DNA of 64,000 nt from an uncultured Gemmatimonadales bacterium (GCA_963701965.1 OY969695.1:1408001-1472000); one strand, 5' to 3'; numbered from the stretch's first letter, positions 46,000 through 61,659 are shown. Numbers and translations: made by a program. Notes: generated from the sequence alone by a model not told the origin.

Positions 46000-48900
46000 G
46001 AGTTTCCCTCACTCCCGTTGCCGTTGCCTGACCCGTTCGACCCATTGGCTGGTGCTCCGCCATTCCCGCCGCCGTACCCGTCGGCGGTCGCCCCGAGGGT
46101 GACCTTGATGCCGAGGGCTTGCAGCTCCTTCACCAGCACGTTGAAGGACTCGGGAATGCCGGGCTCGGGAAGATTCTGGCCTTTGACGATCGCCTCGTAG
46201 ACGCGGCTGCGTCCGTTGACGTCGTCGGACTTCACGGTCAGGATCTCCTGGAGCGTATGCGCCGCGCCGTACGCTTCGAGCGCCCACACTTCCATCTCCC
46301 CGAACCGCTGCCCGCCGAACTGCGCTTTCCCGGCGAGCGGCTGCTGGGTGACCAACGAGTAGGGCCCGATGCTGCGGGCGTGGATCTTGTCGTCCACCAG
46401 GTGCGACAACTTCAGCATGTAAATTTCACCGACCGTGACCGGGCTGGCGAAAGTCTCGCCCGTCCGCCCGTCGCGCAGGCGGACCTTCCCGCCCGGCGTG
46501 ATCCCGGCCAACCGCAACAACTCCAACACCGCCTGATCGACGTCCGCGTCGCTCTTCTTGCGGAGAATCGTCGCCAGCACGGGCAGCTCCTCGGCCGCCA
46601 ACGTGTCGGCCGGGTCGCGCGCCTCGAGCTTTTCGAGATCGGGCACGACATCCCGATACTGCCCGCGCGCCCGATCGCTCTCGGCGGCATCTTCAATGCC
46701 CGCGCGGTGGAACGCGAGTTGATGTCCCATCTCCTGCTTCTCGCGCTCCGCCAACTCCCGGGCCGCGGCGGCGCAGAAATCGCGCACCCGCGTGTACACC
46801 TCTTTCGTCGCGCCCGTTCGTCCGCGGGACCCGAGATCGTTCAACGTCGCGTCGGCGAGCAGCTCCACGCGCTCACCGCCGTCCGTGGACGAGGGCTTGA
46901 GATCCTCGAGGATCGCCTTGATATCCGCGTCGCTGATCTCCGGTGACTTGGTGACCAGTTGCAGCGCCTCGCGGGCCCACTTGAGCGCGGCGAGCTTGAG
47001 CAGCAAGCCGATCTCGCGCTCGTTGGCGCCCTGGAAGACGGGCGTCTTGGCGTAGAAACCCAACAGCCGCGCCGCCCAGCCCAGGTGCGTCTCCAGAATC
47101 TGGCCGACGTTCATACGGCTCGGGACACCGAGGGGGTTGAGCACGATGTCGACGGGACGGCCTTCGGGGAGGAACGGCATATCCTCCTCGGGGACGATCC
47201 GTGCGACAATGCCCTTGTTCCCGTGGCGACCCGCCATCTTGTCGCCGACCGAGATCTTGCGCTTCTCGGCCAGATAAACCTTCACGAGCTGGATCACCCC
47301 GGGCGGCAGCTCATCGGGCTGCAGAATCCGGTCGATCCGCTCTTCGGCCTTCTCTTCGATTTTCGCCTTCTCGTCGTTCGCCGCGTCGATGACCGTGCGC
47401 GCGCGCTCGTTCACCGCCTTGCTCTCGACCCGGAACGTCTTGAGGTCGAGGGTCGCGATCTTGAAGCCGTGCAGGAACTCGCGGTCGAGCTTCGTCCCCT
47501 GGGGGATCGCCTCTTCGACCGTTCCTGCTTTGAGGGCCAGCGCCACTTTCTGCCCGTCGAGCAACTCAACCAGCTCGGCGTCGCGCGCTTCGTTTACCCG
47601 GATCTTCTCTTCTCCTTCCAGCCGGCGCACTTCGCCGATTCTCTCACCGCGGTCCTTCTCGACCACTTGGTCTTCGATTCGCGAGAAGATCTTGACGTCG
47701 ATGACCACGCCTTCCATGCCGGGCGGCACTTTGAGCGACGAATCCTTGACGTCTTTGGCCTTTTCGCCGAAGATCGCGGTCAGGAGCTTCTCTTCGGGCG
47801 ACAGCTCGGTCTCGCCCTTCGGCGTGATCTTGCCGACGAGAATGTCGCCCGGCTTGACGTGGGCGCCGATGCGGACGATACCGCGCTCGTCGAGGTCGAC
47901 CAGCGACTCCTCGGCGACGTTCGGAATCTCCCGCGTGATCTCTTCCTGGCCGCGCTTGGTGTCGCGGACGTGCAGCTCGAGCTCCTGGATGTGGATCGAC
48001 GAGTACACGTCGTCTTTCACCAGACGCTCCGAGAGAATAATCGCGTCCTCGAAGTTGTGACCGTACCACGGCATGAACGCCACGGTGACGTTGGCGCCGA
48101 GGGCCAGCTGCCCCATCTCCCGTGCCCGCGCCATCGGCCAGCACATCGCCGACCTGCACGCGCTGACCGGCGTGCACCAACGGCCGCTGGTTGATGGCGG
48201 TGTCTTGATTCGTGCGCCAGTACTTCTTGAGCCGGTACCGGTCGCTCTGATTGAGGCGGGCCAACGGCGAGCCGGCGGCCGCGCTGGCGCGCGCCGCGGC
48301 GGCGCCTTCGGCCTGACCGGCGTCGACGATGATCTCATCGGCCGTCACGCGGGTCACGAGACCCGGGCGGCGGGCGACGACGACGGCACCGGAATCGATC
48401 GCGACCTTCTCTTCGAGCCCGGTTCCGACCAGCGGCGTCCGGGGATTCAGCAACGGCACGCTCTGCCGCTGCATGTTGGATCCCATGAGCGCGCGGTTGG
48501 CGTCGTCATGTTCGAGAAAGGGGATGAGGGCGGCCGCAATAGACACCAGCTGCTCCGGCGCCACATCCATGTAATCGATGCGGTCGGGCGGGGTCAGCGG
48601 CGCGTCACCTTGATGCCGGCACAGCACCAACTCATCGAGGAACGTGCCATCGGGATTGAGCTTGGTGTTGGCCTGCGCGATCGTCGCGTCCTCCTCGCGG
48701 TTGGCATCGAGCCACGCCAGCTCGCCCGTGACCTTTCCGTGCTTCACGATGCGATACGGCGTCTCGATGAACCCGAGGTCGTTCACCTGCGCGTAGCAGG
48801 CGAGCGACGTGATCAACCCAATGTTCGGACCTTCCGGCGTCTCGATCGGGCACATACGCCCATACTGGGAGTAGTGCACGTCGCGCACCTCGAACCCGGC

Positions 48901-50631
48901 GCGCTCCCGCGTGAGGCCGCCCGGTCCCAGCGCCGACAAACGCCGCTTGTGGGTCAGCTCGGCCAACGGGTTGGTCTGATCCATGAACTGCGACAGCTGC
49001 GACGACCCGAAGAACGCCTGGATGACCGCCGAAACGGTCCGGGCATTCACCAGATCATCGAGCGAGATCTTCTCGGGATCGGTGTTGATCGACATGCGCT
49101 CTTTGACCAGCCGCGCCATGCGCGAGAGACCGACGGAGAACTGATTGGCGATCAACTCGCCGACCGACCGGATCCGGCGGTTGCCGAGGTGATCAATGTC
49201 GTCCGTGTGCCCGCGGCCTTCGTGCAGCTCCACGAGATAGCGCACGATCGCGACGAAGTCGTCGCGGGTGAGCACGGTCTCGTTCGCCGGGCGGTTGAGG
49301 CCCAGGCGCTGGTTGATCTTGTACCGGCCGACACGCCCCAGATCGTAGCGCTTGGGCGAGAAGAACAACCGCTCCAGCGCCTGCTTCGCCGTCTCGCGGT
49401 TCGGGGCATCGCCCGGCCGCAGCAGCGAGTAGATCTGCTTGAGCGCCTCCTCCTCGGAATGCGTCGGGTCCTTGCCCAGCGTGTTCTTGATGAGCGCCGA
49501 CTCCACGCGACCCGAAGGCGCGAAGACCTGGACCTTGATGACGTCGGACTTCCGCAACCGCTTGATCAGCGTCGCGTTGAGCGGTTGGTCGGCCTCGGCG
49601 TATACCTCGCCCGTGGCCGTGTCGATGACGTCGCGCGCCAGCACCGGCGGCTGCTCGCGCTCGCCACGCTCGATCGCATCCAGCTCATCGCGGATGTCGA
49701 CGGTCGTGTAGGACGCGAACACCTTGATCTTCTTGTACTTGAGCTCGCGCAGACGCTCGGCCAGCTCCTCGGTGAGCTCCGTGCCGACCGCGATAGTCCG
49801 CTCGGCCTCGGCGGCGGCCTGCTCGGCCTTCGCCTTCTTGGTCTTGGGCTTGGGCGCATCGGGATCGTGCTCACGACCGGGCAGCACGACCTGTTCGGCG
49901 ACGATGGCACCGGCCAGCTCCCGCAGCTCCTGGCGGTTGGAGCGGATCTTGGTCAGATCGAGCTCACGGACACCGAAGAAGAGGTTGTACAGATCCGCGT
50001 CGTTCCCGTAGCCGAACGCGCGCAGCAGCGCGGTCGCCGGGAACTTCTTCTTCTTGTCGATGTGGACGTAGATCACGTCGTGAATGTCGACCGTGAACTC
50101 GACCCACGATCCGCGGAACGGAATGATGCGCGCCGAGATCAGGCGCTGCCCGTTCGGGTGCGTCGACTCCTCGAACACGGCGCCCGGAGACCGGTGCAGC
50201 TGACTGACGACGACCCGTTCGGCGCCGTTGATGACGAACGTGCCGAGCTTGGTGAGCAGCGGCAGCTCGCCGAGATAGACTTCTTTCTCGATGATGTTGC
50301 GCGGGCGCTTCACGCCGTTGACTTCTTCGTTGATCACCAGCTGAAGCGTCGCTTTGAGCGGGGCCGAGTACGTCATGTCGCGCTCGATGCACTCCTCGAC
50401 GGAGTACTTCGGCTCGCCCAGCGAATACTTCACGAACTCCAGCGAGAAATTCTCGTGGACGTCCGTGATCGGAAAGAGGTCCTTGAAGACGCGCTCCAAA
50501 CCGATATCTTCGCGGTCTTGGCTCGCCGCGTCGAGTTGGAGGAGGGCCTCGAAGGCCCGGGTCTGAATGTCGAGGAGATGCGGCATCCGCATCCCGCCGG
50601 CGAGCTTGCCAAAGGATATCTGCTTCATCAT
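45996..50631 (-). CDS. rpoB: RNA polymerase beta subunit (1-nt frameshift near 48120)
   Basis: [33 protein letters not shown]; two ORFs join as [13 protein letters not shown] if one G is removed. Confidence 0.97.
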
Positions 50632-55234: not shown

Positions 55235-55307
55235 AGCTCGCGATCGGGATTGAACCGATGACCTCACCCTTACCAAGGGTGTGCTCTACCGACTGAGCTA
55301 CGCGAGC
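55235..55307 (-). tRNA. tRNA-Thr(GGT)
   Basis: GCTCGCG acceptor, TAGCTCAG D arm, CACCC-TTGGTAA-GGGTG, GTTCAAT; no encoded CCA. Confidence 0.96.
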
Positions 55308-55365
55308 GGCTTGCTTCATCTACTTTCTCGCTGCGCACTCCACACTGATACAGCATCACCCAGCA

Positions 55366-55438
55366 AGCGGGAGACGGGGCTCGAACCCGCGACATCAAGC
55401 TTGGAAGGCTTGCGCTCTACCAACTGAGCTACTCCCGC
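55366..55438 (-). tRNA. tRNA-Gly(TCC)
   Basis: GCGGGAG acceptor, CAAGC-CTTCCAA-GCTTG, GTTCGAG. Confidence 0.96.
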
Positions 55439-55449
55439 GTCTCCCTCGA

Positions 55450-55532
55450 TGGTGGGAGAAGGATTCGAACCTTCGAAGGCGTACGCCGGCAGATTTACAG
55501 TCTGCTCCCGTTGGCCACTTGGGTATCCCACC
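55450..55532 (-). tRNA. tRNA-Tyr(GTA)
   Basis: GGTGGGA acceptor, GCAGA-CTGTAAA-TCTGC, long variable arm, GTTCGAAT. Confidence 0.96.
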
Positions 55533-55571
55533 AGACAGCCCCTCTCGCCCGCAGCGCGCCGAACAACAGAG

Positions 55572-55644
55572 AGCTGACGGCGAGACTTGAACTCGCAACC
55601 TGCTGATTACAAATCAGCTGCTCTGCCAATTGAGCTACGTCAGC
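55572..55644 (-). tRNA. tRNA-Thr(TGT)
   Basis: GCTGACG acceptor, GCTGA-TTTGTAA-TCAGC, GTTCAAG. Confidence 0.96.
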
Positions 55645-57309: not shown

Positions 57310-57900
57310 TCAACTGAGCACGTGAAGCGCGAACGCGAGCGCGGATGGCGCCACAATGCGCTCCGCGCTGACGGCGACGAGCATGCTCCACACAATAATC
57401 GCCGCCGCGTCGCGGCGATCCCAAAGGTCCGGCCCGTCGCCACCGCGCGCCGCCGCGCGCGCCTGGGCGAGCGCCGCCATCCAACAGCACGCCGTGGCGC
57501 CGAGCGCGAGCGCGGCCGTGAGCGCCGGCGCCGGCGGCGCCAAACGCGAGACCCACCCGGCGACCGATACGGGCCGCGGCGCCACCAGCGCGGCGACCGC
57601 CCGCGCCACTGGCTCGCTGGTCAGTGGCGCGACTCCAGCCGCGAACCACCGCCGAAATGCCGGCGTGCGACCCGACGGCCCCGCGGCACGCCACACGACC
57701 GCGCCAACCGGTACGACCGCCAACCGCGGCGTCCACGCCACCACGGCGAGCAAGTGCCGCAGCACGGGCTCGAGCGCCAGCGCATGCGAGGGATGCGGCG
57801 AACCGAGGAGCACCGGCAGGAGCTCCGGCGCCAGCGTCAGCACGAGCGCCAACGCCGCCCCCGCGTGCGCCGCCGCGGCCGCCGCGATCAGCCAGCCCAC
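57310..57900 (-). CDS. Integral membrane protein (about 4-5 hydrophobic segments)
   Basis: Hydrophobic stretches; GTG 57900 overlaps ABC gene end; start uncertain. Confidence 0.6.
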   Translation of the reverse strand: MGWLIAAAAAAHAGAALALVLTLAPELLPVLLGSPHPSHALALEPVLRHLLAVVAWTPRLAVVPVGAVVWRAAGPSGRTPAFRRWFAAGVAPLTSEPVARAVAALVAPRPVSVAGWVSRLAPPAPALTAALALGATACCWMAALAQARAAARGGDGPDLWDRRDAAAIIVWSMLVAVSAERIVAPSALAFALHVLS

Positions 57901-58472
57901 GCGAGAGCACCTCGAACCAGCGACAGCACGCGATCGACCTGGCTGGGCGCTTCGCGCGCCGCGAGCACCACCGTCACCCCGGCGCGCGCCAGCGCCGGCA
58001 GGAGATCGGGCGGGATCGGCGCATCCACGAACGCGAGCCGTGGTCGCGCCGCCAGCAGGCACGCCATGCGCAACCGGCTGACCGCATCATAAGGAAGGCC
58101 ACCCACGACGGACGCGTGGCATTCGGAGAGACCGACGCCGTCGAGCGCCTCCGCCACCGCCGTGGCGCTCGCGGTGCGCGCGCCCAGCGCGACGGCGTCG
58201 ATGACGGTCATCCACGCATAGGCCACGCATGCGCCGGAGACGTACGTGGCGGCACCGGCCGACTCGACGCGCCCGGCGTCGGGACGCAGCAATCCCGCCG
58301 CGCAGAGCAAGAGCGTGGACTTGCCCGATCCCGCCCCGCCAACGATGGCGACCCTCTCGCCGGCGTGGACATCGAGGTCGACGCGCCGAAGGACACGCAC
58401 GGCCGCCGCGCACCCCGGTACGCCGGACCGGTACGACTTCCGAAGCTGGCGGATCGCGAGCACGCGCGTCAT
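57888..58472 (-). CDS. ABC ATPase-like protein with degenerate catalytic motifs
   Basis: 'LRKSY…VLRRVDLDVHAGERVAIVGGAGSGKSTLL…LRPDAG'; ATGA overlap with upstream gene. Confidence 0.8.
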   Translation of the reverse strand: MTRVLAIRQLRKSYRSGVPGCAAAVRVLRRVDLDVHAGERVAIVGGAGSGKSTLLLCAAGLLRPDAGRVESAGAATYVSGACVAYAWMTVIDAVALGARTASATAVAEALDGVGLSECHASVVGGLPYDAVSRLRMACLLAARPRLAFVDAPIPPDLLPALARAGVTVVLAAREAPSQVDRVLSLVRGALAWAG

Positions 58473-58942
58473 CGCGCCACCATCCGCAAAGCAATCATAA
58501 ATGCCGCGGTAGTCTGGACATCGTACCGCGCGACGATCGACCCGCGGGAGATCGCGATGAACGCCGGCACGGCCCGGATCGCGAGCGCCCGCGCCAGGGC
58601 GCCGTTGGGGTCCAACGCCAGGGCGGCACGAACGCCGAGCGCGGTTGCCCATCGCGACACCGCGCGGCCGGAGTCTGGCGGTTCGGCGGCGACGATGATG
58701 GCGCGGACGCGCAGGGCCGCGGCGGCCGAGTCGAATCGCGCCGCGACCGGTCCGCAGTGGCCGCACCGGCGGCTGACGTACAGCACGCCGACTGGTGCGC
58801 CGAGCGTCGCATTACCCCGGACCGGTAGCAAAGCGGGCGGCGAGAGGACCGGCGGCGCGTCGACGCGGCGCCGGACCAGCGCCGCCGCCGGCAGAGCGGC
58901 GGCACTGGTGAACAGCAACGCGGTCAGAAGCCAATGTCGCAC
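58469..58942 (-). CDS. Membrane-anchored thioredoxin-fold (TlpA-like) protein, CGHC
   Basis: N-terminal TM, 'VLYVSRRCGHC', 'LDPNGALARALAIRAVPAFIAI' cis-Pro region. Confidence 0.75.
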   Translation of the reverse strand: MRHWLLTALLFTSAAALPAAALVRRRVDAPPVLSPPALLPVRGNATLGAPVGVLYVSRRCGHCGPVAARFDSAAAALRVRAIIVAAEPPDSGRAVSRWATALGVRAALALDPNGALARALAIRAVPAFIAISRGSIVARYDVQTTAAFMIALRMVAR

Positions 58943-59112
58943 AGAAACGTGCCGAGCGCGCCACAATACCCGCGCAGCAGACTCGAGAAGAGGAGTGTCC
59001 GGGGAAAGACATCGGTGCACAAGCCGGCGGCTGCGACCGAGCACTGGGCGGGCGCTGGCGACGGCGTGCCGAATGCCGTCACGACAACAAACAGGAACAC
59101 GAGGGGTTTCAT
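58924..59112 (-). CDS. Small secreted 4-Cys peptide (62-aa precursor)
   Basis: SD GGAG before ATG, signal peptide with A-P-A cleavage site, twin CX7C. Confidence 0.65.
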   Translation of the reverse strand: MKPLVFLFVVVTAFGTPSPAPAQCSVAAAGLCTDVFPRTLLFSSLLRGYCGALGTFLCDIGF

Positions 59113-59156
59113 GCGAATCTCCGGAGGACGGTGAAAGAACTGCGGCCTGCGGAGAC

Positions 59157-59193
59157 GAAAATCGTGGTGGCGAGGCCCGGGGCCATCACCACG
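59157..59193 (-). terminator. Probable terminator after AI-2E gene
   Basis: CGTGGTG…GGCC-CCG-GGCC…CACCACG then ATTTT on minus strand. Confidence 0.5.
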
Positions 59194-59219: not shown

Positions 59220-60445
59220 CTACGTCCGGTGCGCCGCCTCGCCGAGGGCGATGAGATCGGGCCCATTGCCGTCGACCGTCGCCCCGCCCACGCCGCCTTC
59301 GGCGGCGGGCACGCGCAGGACGAGCGGCCGGTCCCGGCGGGGCCGGCGAAAGCCACGGCCCTCGTAAATGCGGGCGACGAGCAGCCGGTGTACGAGCACC
59401 ATGATGGCCACGAGCAAGGGCACCGACACCAGGAGCCCGATGGGCCCCAGCAACGTCCCGAAGATGAGCACCGCCATCATCGTGAGGACCGGCGGCAGAT
59501 CCACGCGCTTCGACATGAGATTCGGCGACACCACGTTCCCTTCAATGACGTGGATCAGGACGCCGAGCCCGATGACCAGCGCCGCCTTGGAGAGGCCATT
59601 GGGGCCGCCAATGACGAACAACGCCGGCACCGTCGTCGACAGCAGCACGCCGTAGACCGGAATGATCGCGGCGGCCGCGGCCAACACGCCGAACGTCAGC
59701 CAGTAGGGCACGTGGATGGCCCACAGCCCGATCGCCGTGAGCGCGCCCAGGATCAGCATCGTCCACAGCTGGGCAACAATGTAGTCGCGCAATCGGAGCG
59801 CCATCTCGATCAGGACATCGCGCACCAGGTCCCGGTGGCCGGGCGGGAAGAGCGCGATCACCCACTCGCGATACACCGCCGGATCGAGCGCCAGGTCAAT
59901 GCCCATCACGATGACCGTGAAGACCGCCGTGATCGTCGCCAGGGCCGAGAAGACGCGCGGCAGGACCTCGTTGACGAGACCGGACAGTTGCGACGACAGT
60001 CCGCCCAACAACTCCGTCTGCGTCGTCGCGATCTGCTTGGCCAGCCCGGGATAGTTGGTCGCCAGCCGCTGGATCGCTCCCGAGAGAGACGACACGGACT
60101 GGGGGACGAGGTTGATGAGTTGCTGCGTCTGCTGGGCGACGGGCGGCACGAGGAGCGCCACCAGGCCGAACCCGGCGCCCAGCGTGATGACGACACCGAG
60201 CCAGAAGGCAATCGGCCGGGGGAGTCGCGTACGGCGAACGAGGAAGTCGGCGACGGCGCCCAGATAGAGGGCGAGCAACGACGCCAGGAAGAGCAGGAGA
60301 AAATGTCCGCGGCCTTGAGGACCGTGTACAGCAGGAGGCCGGTGAGGACGACCGCCGTGAGGAGCGGCGCGATGCGGACCGGCGCGCGCGAGGCCGGCCG
60401 TTCCTGCCGCGGCGACGTCACCGCCGTGACCTCGCGCCGGGCCAC
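59220..60445 (-). CDS. AI-2E family transporter (1-nt frameshift near 60301)
   Basis: Multi-TM; 'DYIVAQL', 'IPVYG', 'IEGNVVSPNLMSKRVDLPP', 'LGPIGLLVSVP'; adding a T gives AADIFLLLFLASLLALYL. Confidence 0.88.
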
Positions 60446-61253: not shown

Positions 61254-61659
61254 TCAGCGCCCGTCGCGGAAGGCGCCGAGTTCCCGCAAGTGAGAGCCAA
61301 GCGCCAGCGTCATCCCCTCGTAGGCCGCGAGGAATTCCTCGTAGTCGAGAATGCGCCAGCTCCAAAGCCTCGGTAATGACAATGGAGTCCCGTTCAATCC
61401 CATACGAGCCGTGGACGAGATCGGTTGCATTCAGTTGAAGGAGTCGGCGCGCCAAACTGGCGGACGCTGCCGCATCCTGCGGCACGTTCATGACCTTGAC
61501 CCGCAAGACCACCACGGGCGGCGAGTAGTGGACCACGACGTCCAAGTCCAAGGCGCCGTTGGGTTTAACGATCCACAACCCCGGCTCGACCTCGCTGTGG
61601 CTCGTGCCTTCGGCCGCCAGGCGGTCGAGGAAGCTCTCAATGTCTTCGCGGGTGACCAT
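61254..61659 (-). CDS. YbjN/CesT-like chaperone-fold protein (1-nt frameshift near 61350)
   Basis: 'RRLLQLNATDLVHGSYGI'; removing one T gives ELAHLDYEEFLAAYEGMTLALGSHLRELGAFRDGR*. Confidence 0.75.

Follow-up and report, generated by a model that had tools for sequence, protein, structure and literature searches.

The window, a 64,000-nucleotide stretch of DNA from an uncultured Gemmatimonadales bacterium, carries a cassette of four open reading frames, all on the minus strand, between positions 57310 and 59112 (Table 1). A preliminary description of this DNA had proposed a 62-aa ORF with a Shine-Dalgarno sequence, a signal-like N-terminus and the cysteine pattern C-x7-C-x17-C-x7-C, and the sequence holds all of these as claimed. 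The three downstream genes, each said to overlap its predecessor, were confirmed at the coordinates listed; the thioredoxin and peptide ORFs share 19 nt. An alternative thioredoxin start at 59044, which would cover the peptide gene, is not supported and was ruled out, since the GTG at 58942 is kept at the same position in 4/4 close relatives. All four frames are open and agree with those of relatives.

Table 1. Features of the peptide locus, in window coordinates
Feature	Position	Strand	Remarks
G+C-rich leader hairpin, then ATTTTC	59163..59193	-	5' leader stem-loop or weak terminator; in 5/5 leaders
Shine-Dalgarno GGAG of the peptide gene	59119..59122	-	from sequence; 6 nt 5' of the ATG
Peptide precursor gene	58924..59112	-	62 aa, ATG start
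Predicted Sec signal peptide, residues 1-22, A-P-A end	59047..59112	-	from sequence and A22 conservation; heuristic
Thioredoxin-fold CxxC protein (CGHC), N-terminally anchored, 157 aa	58469..58942	-	GTG start; family accessory
ATGA overlap at the thioredoxin/ATPase junction	58469..58472	-	relatives have the ABC-2 permease gene here
Degenerate ABC ATPase, 194 aa	57888..58472	-	ABC_tran E 2e-13
Yip1-like multi-pass membrane protein, 196 aa	57310..57900	-	GTG start; aligned with its family

Elsewhere in the window, the AI-2E gene (60278-60445), a YbjN/CesT-like gene (61254-61659) and rpoB (47644-50631) each look frameshifted, probably through indel errors in the assembly; the AI-2E homologue of G003, a genome of the same genus, is uninterrupted. 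Four ordinary tRNA genes lie between cysS and tuf (55235-55644), and tRNAs were the only families at gathering score in an Rfam scan of 55-62 kb.

A terminator-like hairpin had been placed between the unit and the AI-2E gene. The hairpin exists and is conserved in the aligned leaders, with two-sided changes at 2 pairs, but its role as a terminator is unconfirmed because only four T follow it and the terminator scan did not flag it. In relatives, 24/38 leaders have a TANNNT hexamer 60-100 nt upstream (6.7% background), usually just 5' of a hairpin, and this position suggests a stem-loop of the 5' leader. The peptide gene likely has its own promoter in many relatives; the leader of the window lineage has no TANNNT element. 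Additionally, a second short stem in the window leader pairs with the Shine-Dalgarno sequence. As a family trait, such a sequestering hairpin was rejected (0.69 for 44 leaders vs 0.66 for 250 control genes).

A new family of four-cysteine peptides

The cysteines of the window peptide are C24, C32, C50 and C58, and their spacing is unique to it among the 20,524 ATG-started ORFs of 50-90 aa in the genome. The marks of a signal peptide are K2, a hydrophobic core and A-P-A, with A22 invariant in 34/34 alignment rows; with the signal peptide and cleavage site assigned by eye and heuristic, the predicted mature peptide has 40 aa and all four cysteines.

Searching with the window peptide as a single sequence matched only the peptide itself. 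The family was reached through its thioredoxin neighbour, which had matches in 8/61 genomes and, as a profile, in 43/401 genomes of the window's family, inferred to be Gemmatimonadaceae (hereafter family genomes). Twenty of 30 thioredoxin-profile loci were examined further, 19 of which held 32 four-cysteine peptides; the other ten comprise four with a different cysteine peptide and six without any. A core-motif scan of 185,579 GTDB genomes returned 47 matches, and 41 were confirmed as loci. By record title, 40 of these are Gemmatimonadota and one is 'Bacterium HR33', which we take to belong to the same phylum. Profile searches gathered 118 proteins at 90% clustering, every named one of them 'hypothetical', and 92 clusters at 50% identity. 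In a sample of the phylum, 26/361 genomes matched, all from three families of the window's order, and nine other families gave 0/123. The peptide is patchily present in the window's own family as well (19/401 genomes). An unpublished genome (G012) supplied a query and alignment rows, and the conclusions rest on other loci.

For 34 peptide members, no Pfam family was common to more than one and no NCBIfam family to more than three, all of the matches being weak. PDB sequences gave 0 matches to the family at E <= 5, and an Atlas search with one family peptide returned only unnamed clusters, all below 0.9. The openly accessible literature searched gave no description of the peptide family or the cassette, no paper on the motif IRGWCY and none joining Gemmatimonad with Yip1. 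The peptide is a real new family, unnamed in the libraries searched. The earlier suggestion of a new peptide system thus stands, as the peptide falls into no family of Pfam, NCBIfam or the PDB, and the cysteine spacing is conserved in relatives beside homologues of the thioredoxin and ABC genes.

The window peptide is a divergent member. The family motif RGWCY, found as RG[WY]C in 71/92 representatives at 50% identity, is missing from it, and it is more hydrophobic than the family (GRAVY 0.98 vs a median of 0.29). Its net charge is 0 and the family median is -2; in a set of 168 peptides with heuristic cleavage and one over-represented genus, 3 are cationic and 165 anionic or neutral, with Q as the predicted first mature residue in 83 of them and D in another 51. 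N-terminal pyroglutamate, raised in the preliminary description, is therefore possible for the window peptide but is not a family-wide feature.

AlphaFold2 gives the window peptide two helices, 21-35 and 41-60, with only modest confidence (pLDDT 68), and the mature peptide is predicted to be a helical hairpin, as had been proposed. Fold searches for the peptide gave no Foldseek match at E <= 0.001 and a best VIA Z of 4.9. Related sequences gathered by the four-cysteine profile fitted the pattern in 256/260 cases. Their C1-C2 and C3-C4 arms are short-short in 24, short-long in 5, long-short in 0 and long-long in 227, and among 50% representatives the same classes hold 16, 4, 0 and 68. A short C3-C4 arm (<=5) was thus found only together with a short C1-C2 arm (<=4). 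Furthermore, the upstream type of paralogue has either four cysteines or just the inner two. The covariation of the arms and the paralogues that keep only the inner pair fit nested C1-C4/C2-C3 bonds, which makes the nesting suggested earlier for the window peptide (C24-C58/C32-C50) likely.

Several variants and other peptide loci were seen alongside the family. One genus (L014-L024) has three tandem precursor genes, the first with four cysteines or the inner two only. Short-arm C-x3-C-x17-C-x4-C variants (L063, L165, L166) are followed by a DUF5128 beta-propeller gene and not by a thioredoxin or permease gene. Another locus (L007:390-2984) has three tandem signal-peptide ORFs of the form GGxCTxLGC...C...C, then a thioredoxin-like ORF and a beta-propeller of six blades (DUF5128). 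L029, L030, L032 and L035 represent a different system, in which peptides with a long leader, rich in Ala and Gly and patterned C-x2-C-x29/30-C-x3-C, lie, often in pairs, beside a CxxC protein and an ABC ATPase. A C39 peptidase that stands alone (PF03412, E 8e-23) and a membrane protein of no assigned class complete the L030 locus. These long-leader peptides had no NCBIfam match (4 tried) and no Pfam match (2 tried), and a Yip1 identity for the membrane protein of such sister loci was not supported.

The full cassette and its reduction

The full cassette in relatives runs from one or more peptide genes through a thioredoxin gene (25/41 loci), an ABC-2 permease, an intact ATPase and a Yip1-like gene to cysS. 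Across the 41 loci, the permease follows the peptide in 40, the ATPase in 39, the Yip1-like gene in 35 and cysS in 34. Missing genes mostly reflect contig ends; the Yip1-like gene is absent from L041, while L063 and L068 have other arrangements. The permease comes directly after the peptide, within 130 nt, in 15/41 loci. Upstream of the peptide lie pspA in 33/41 and AI-2E in 28/41. AI-2E and the peptide are often separated by a DUF1611 gene, and the Yip1-like gene and cysS by an MscS gene (L060, L047 and others).

The CxxC proteins after the peptide were recognised by profile in 15 loci and by a second motif, YFFRxDCxxC, in 10; 15/41 loci are without thioredoxin. The window copy matches AhpC-TSA at E 1.7e-4, below the curated cut-off, and one homologue passes Thioredoxin_2. 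Its CGHC had been read as the PDI active-site motif. Since homologues differ between the cysteines (CARC, CLYC, CPQC, CAHC, CSHC, CPHC, CRYC), only CxxC is conserved and a PDI-like family signature is not supported.

ABC2_membrane_2 matched 8/37 permeases, and neither the permease nor the Yip1-like profile found a sequence relative in the PDB. One intact family ATPase scored best against the DrrA and lantibiotic-protection profiles, without reaching their cut-offs, and 37/38 ATPases of full-length loci keep all four catalytic motifs. Pfam Yip1 (PF04893) matched 2/35 members of the Yip1-like family (best E 1.6e-5), and comparison of the family with the Atlas gave 0.96 (227/256 features) to a cluster with Yip1 on 47% of it. 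The window copy itself has no direct Pfam match. A Yip1-like model (pLDDT 93) had no Foldseek match at E <= 0.001 and a best Z of 5.8; weak ABC-membrane fold matches of the model were disregarded (TM-scores <=0.33). The peptide is present in every one of the 16 genomes that have the Yip1-like gene, by profiles built from those same loci.

Tree distances at 33 loci correlate with those of cysS (Spearman) at 0.90 for the ATPase, 0.90 for the permease, 0.92 for the Yip1-like gene and 0.53 for the peptide, with 0/999 permutations as high and 0-3 conflicting supported splits per gene. Distances that track cysS point to vertical inheritance; to judge from the sequences, this indicates a cassette passed down at one chromosomal spot, although its genes are linked to cysS.

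The window's genome (G000), G003 and the metagenome contigs L126-L128 (3/18 loci of one search) have no permease but keep the thioredoxin, ATPase and Yip1-like genes. A search of the rest of the window's genome, which is 95% complete, gave no permease orthologue, the best match scoring 21.8 bits vs at least 60 for orthologues. The window ATPase, which has the N-terminal motif Y-R-x-G-x-x-G-C, keeps Walker A (GGAGSGKS), and its signature, Walker B and H-loop sites read LPYD, VDAP and AARE. The Walker B Glu, the signature and the H-loop are lost in all ATPases of the permease-less lineage, with Walker A kept. Permease loss, ATPase motif loss and drift of the peptide motif coincide in G000, G003 and L126-L128. 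The working ABC/membrane pair proposed for this genome is therefore not supported: the permease is missing, the catalytic motifs of the ATPase are lost, and the membrane gene encodes a Yip1-like protein and not the permease. All four genes of the reduced copy are nonetheless under purifying selection, with pairwise dN/dS, by simple counting at high GC, of 0.22-0.43 for the peptide (4 sequences; L128 was left out because its signal part is missing), 0.39-0.60 for the thioredoxin, 0.09-0.45 for the ATPase and 0.15-0.43 for the Yip1-like gene.

Further losses are graded within the same genus. G000 and G003 have lost the permease. G001 (L171) and G005 (L172) have given up the signal peptide, thioredoxin and Yip1-like gene, and keep a signal-less four-cysteine ORF of 35-36 aa immediately before a dead ATPase. 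The signal-less peptides (L171, L172 and L128) start with M-C and have four cysteines at spacings of 7-13-7, 7-12-7 and 6-17-7. In G002, only a three-cysteine peptide and the thioredoxin are left, with one cysteine, the ATPase and the Yip1-like gene gone.

Of 94 family genomes with cysS, we also read 70 over the 1.5 kb preceding that gene (the top 30 matches and 40 picked from the remaining 64), and 68 of them could be oriented. An ABC-like ORF precedes cysS in 42/68, with the signature in 3, the Walker B Asp-Glu in 7 and the H-loop in 3; some of these ORFs are cut at the 1.5-kb limit, and the Yip1-like gene fell within range at 3 loci. A dead-motif ATPase with an N-terminal G-x-x-G-C is found before cysS in about 40/68 family genomes (L181-L248, e.g., L186, L211, L233), nearly all without the Yip1-like gene. 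These orphan ATPases gave dN/dS of 0.10-0.58 in 10/10 hand-picked close pairs. A quick tree places the window ATPase in one group (support 96) with 13 orphan ATPases and 4 intact ones of the family, and separates all 30 cassette-type ATPases from the genome's 14 other ATPases at a support of 89, which is not firm; ATPase branches in the tree are long.

Possible roles and comparison with known systems

The reading we favour, at a probability of roughly 0.45, is that the peptide belongs to the cell's own envelope and is handled by bacteriocin-style machinery, the window holding a trimmed copy of the cassette. The precursor would be exported by Sec and cleaved after A-x-A. The anchored CxxC protein would then oxidise C1-C4 and C2-C3, a task that might fall to general periplasmic oxidases in the 15/41 loci without a CxxC protein. 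Where the cassette is full, the conserved IRGWCY helix may be recognised by the ABC-2 permease with its DrrA/LanF-class ATPase and Yip1-like accessory, and this complex could detach the amphipathic hairpin from the inner membrane. In the window lineage, the permease is gone, the ATPase is seemingly unable to power transport and the peptide has lost its motif and become more hydrophobic, so the peptide would stay membrane-bound with the Yip1-like protein, while the dead ATPase may serve as a non-catalytic partner. The output, the least certain step, might be envelope protection or a local self-signal.

Several observations count for this reading. The locus is fixed, beside cysS in 34/41 and pspA in 33/41, and its distances track cysS; the RG[WY]C core is widely kept and the peptides are nearly all anionic or neutral. 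The losses in the reduced lineage coincide, with dN/dS < 1 throughout. Additionally, the peptide has been kept in genomes whose putative self-protection transporter is dead (G000, G003) and in one that has neither the ATPase nor the Yip1-like gene (G002). Against it, cysS linkage alone could yield the tree congruence, adjacency to pspA is no proof of co-regulation, and the signal-less versions in G001, G005 and L128 misfit obligate export. Patchy distribution (19/401; 26/361) and tandem divergent paralogues would be expected of competition genes, and a set of oxidoreductase, ABC and Yip1 proteins is typical of bacteriocin loci (PMC8659200, PMC10707071, PMC4887032).

Because Yip1 and ABC proteins are known from bacteriocin loci, the main rival is a Sec-exported, unmodified, anionic two-disulfide bacteriocin, for which the ABC-2 permease, ATPase and Yip1-like protein would shield the producer or release the peptide, in the manner of YknWXYZ and SDP, with the Yip1-like protein alone protecting the window's host. 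The gene set mirrors Yip1-bearing circular and leaderless clusters (PMC8659200, PMC10707071, PMC11580447), and YknW, a Yip1 protein, protects against the disulfide peptide SDP (PMC4887032). The same reading would suit the best scores of the intact ATPase, with DrrA and lantibiotic-protection ATPases though below their cut-offs, the peptide in all 16 genomes with the Yip1-like gene (profiles from the same loci), and the patchy presence and tandem paralogues. We nevertheless consider it less likely than the envelope reading, since only 3/168 peptides are cationic, three families share the core motif by vertical inheritance, and the peptide is kept without the Yip1-like gene (L041; G002) or a working transporter (G000, G003). 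The label 'bacteriocin-like' of the preliminary description accordingly fits the gene set but sits poorly with a peptide of median charge -2 that is vertically inherited at a core locus.

Slightly less probable is a wider version of the envelope-peptide reading, by which an undescribed, ancestral Gemmatimonadales envelope module, with bacteriocin-style machinery serving a non-toxic stapled hairpin, would have left its ATPase, in most Gemmatimonadaceae, as a dead-but-selected protein alone before cysS, with the peptide perhaps its partner even when signal-less. A secreted pheromone-like signal, released by the ABC/Yip1 module and with its receptor encoded elsewhere, would agree with a small, disulfide-stabilised, anionic peptide with a variable loop and conserved core, and with the likely own promoter (TANNNT in 24/38 relatives' leaders). 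It is improbable, since the neighbouring genes identified include no kinase, receptor or regulator and the window lineage is without the TANNNT element. Least probable of all is that the cassette once worked and that the window copy is a relic in decay, now inactive, as the graded losses within one genus (G000, G003; G001, G005; G002) and long ATPase branches might suggest, because the four frames are open in G000, G003, L126 and L127 at dN/dS of 0.09-0.60, signal-less peptides still have four cysteines, and 10/10 orphan ATPase pairs gave 0.10-0.58.

Gemmatimonadota are frequent soil bacteria that have received little study. The locus offers a peptide family specific to one order, which has a defined scaffold, length variants occurring in nature and its own transporter, and whose peptides are short enough for synthesis. 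It also records the stepwise dismantling of an ABC cassette in one genus, in which the dead ATPase and the peptide's four cysteines are retained, and this retention points to a non-catalytic role. If the peptides proved antibacterial, a diderm phylum would have a class of bacteriocins that are anionic and exported by Sec.

The eukaryotic alpha-hairpinins and twin-CX9C/CX3C proteins are helical hairpins with nested disulfides. The short family variant C-x3-C-x17-C-x4-C recalls them, with Nigellin-1.1 matching at Z 4.1 and rmsd 2.0 over 38 aligned residues, values in the background range; as there is no sequence relationship either, the likeness is an analogy of shape only. Sec-dependent class II bacteriocins are small unmodified peptides with a Sec signal, a cationic mature part and antibacterial activity with cognate immunity. 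The window precursor resembles them in its 62 aa, its heuristically assigned signal-like N-terminus and a locus with no modifying enzyme beyond the CxxC protein, but it is not cationic (net charge 0, family median -2).

Glycocins such as sublancin 168 and glycocin F have two helices, two nested disulfides and often a neighbouring thiol-disulfide oxidoreductase (PMC12457901, PMC6606811). The cassette peptide, with two predicted helices, predicted nested disulfides and a frequent CxxC neighbour, may resemble them in architecture. However, it has a Sec-type A-x-A leader and a stand-alone ATPase with an ABC-2 permease, whereas glycocins have a double-glycine leader and a C39 peptidase/transporter, and the oxidoreductase is optional in the cassette. 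No glycosyltransferase lies among the window genes around the peptide, and the next gene in the 41 loci is a thioredoxin, a permease or a beta-propeller. The view that this is not a standard glycocin cluster is thus upheld by the leader, the missing glycosyltransferase and the missing C39 peptidase/transporter.

Circular and leaderless bacteriocin clusters, e.g., that of bawcin, place Yip1 beside ABC genes and a short helical peptide (PMC8659200, PMC10707071, PMC11580447), whereas the cassette peptide has a predicted signal peptide and four cysteines and is anionic. DUF95/SpoIIM, a mark of circular bacteriocins, had no Pfam match among the cassette membrane proteins. EntV of Enterococcus faecalis is described as a Sec-directed core-genome peptide that needs the thioredoxin-family oxidase DsbA (PMC6606811). 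The cassette peptide would likewise be a Sec-directed core-genome peptide oxidised by a thioredoxin-like protein, but EntV has one disulfide, is cleaved by GelE and has an unlinked dsbA, and no sequence similarity to the cassette peptide was found. The Bacillus SDP toxin and YknWXYZ combine a small disulfide peptide with an ABC system that has the Yip1-family accessory YknW (PMC4887032), and the cassette also has a small, putatively disulfide-bonded peptide, an ABC system and a Yip1-like accessory. While YknXYZ is MacAB-like with a membrane fusion protein, the cassette permease is of ABC-2 type with no fusion protein seen, and the cassette peptide has two predicted disulfides and shares one operon with its transporter. 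Collectively, by analogy, the locus is of the kind that joins a disulfide peptide to its own oxidoreductase and to ABC and Yip1 proteins, but with a new peptide family.
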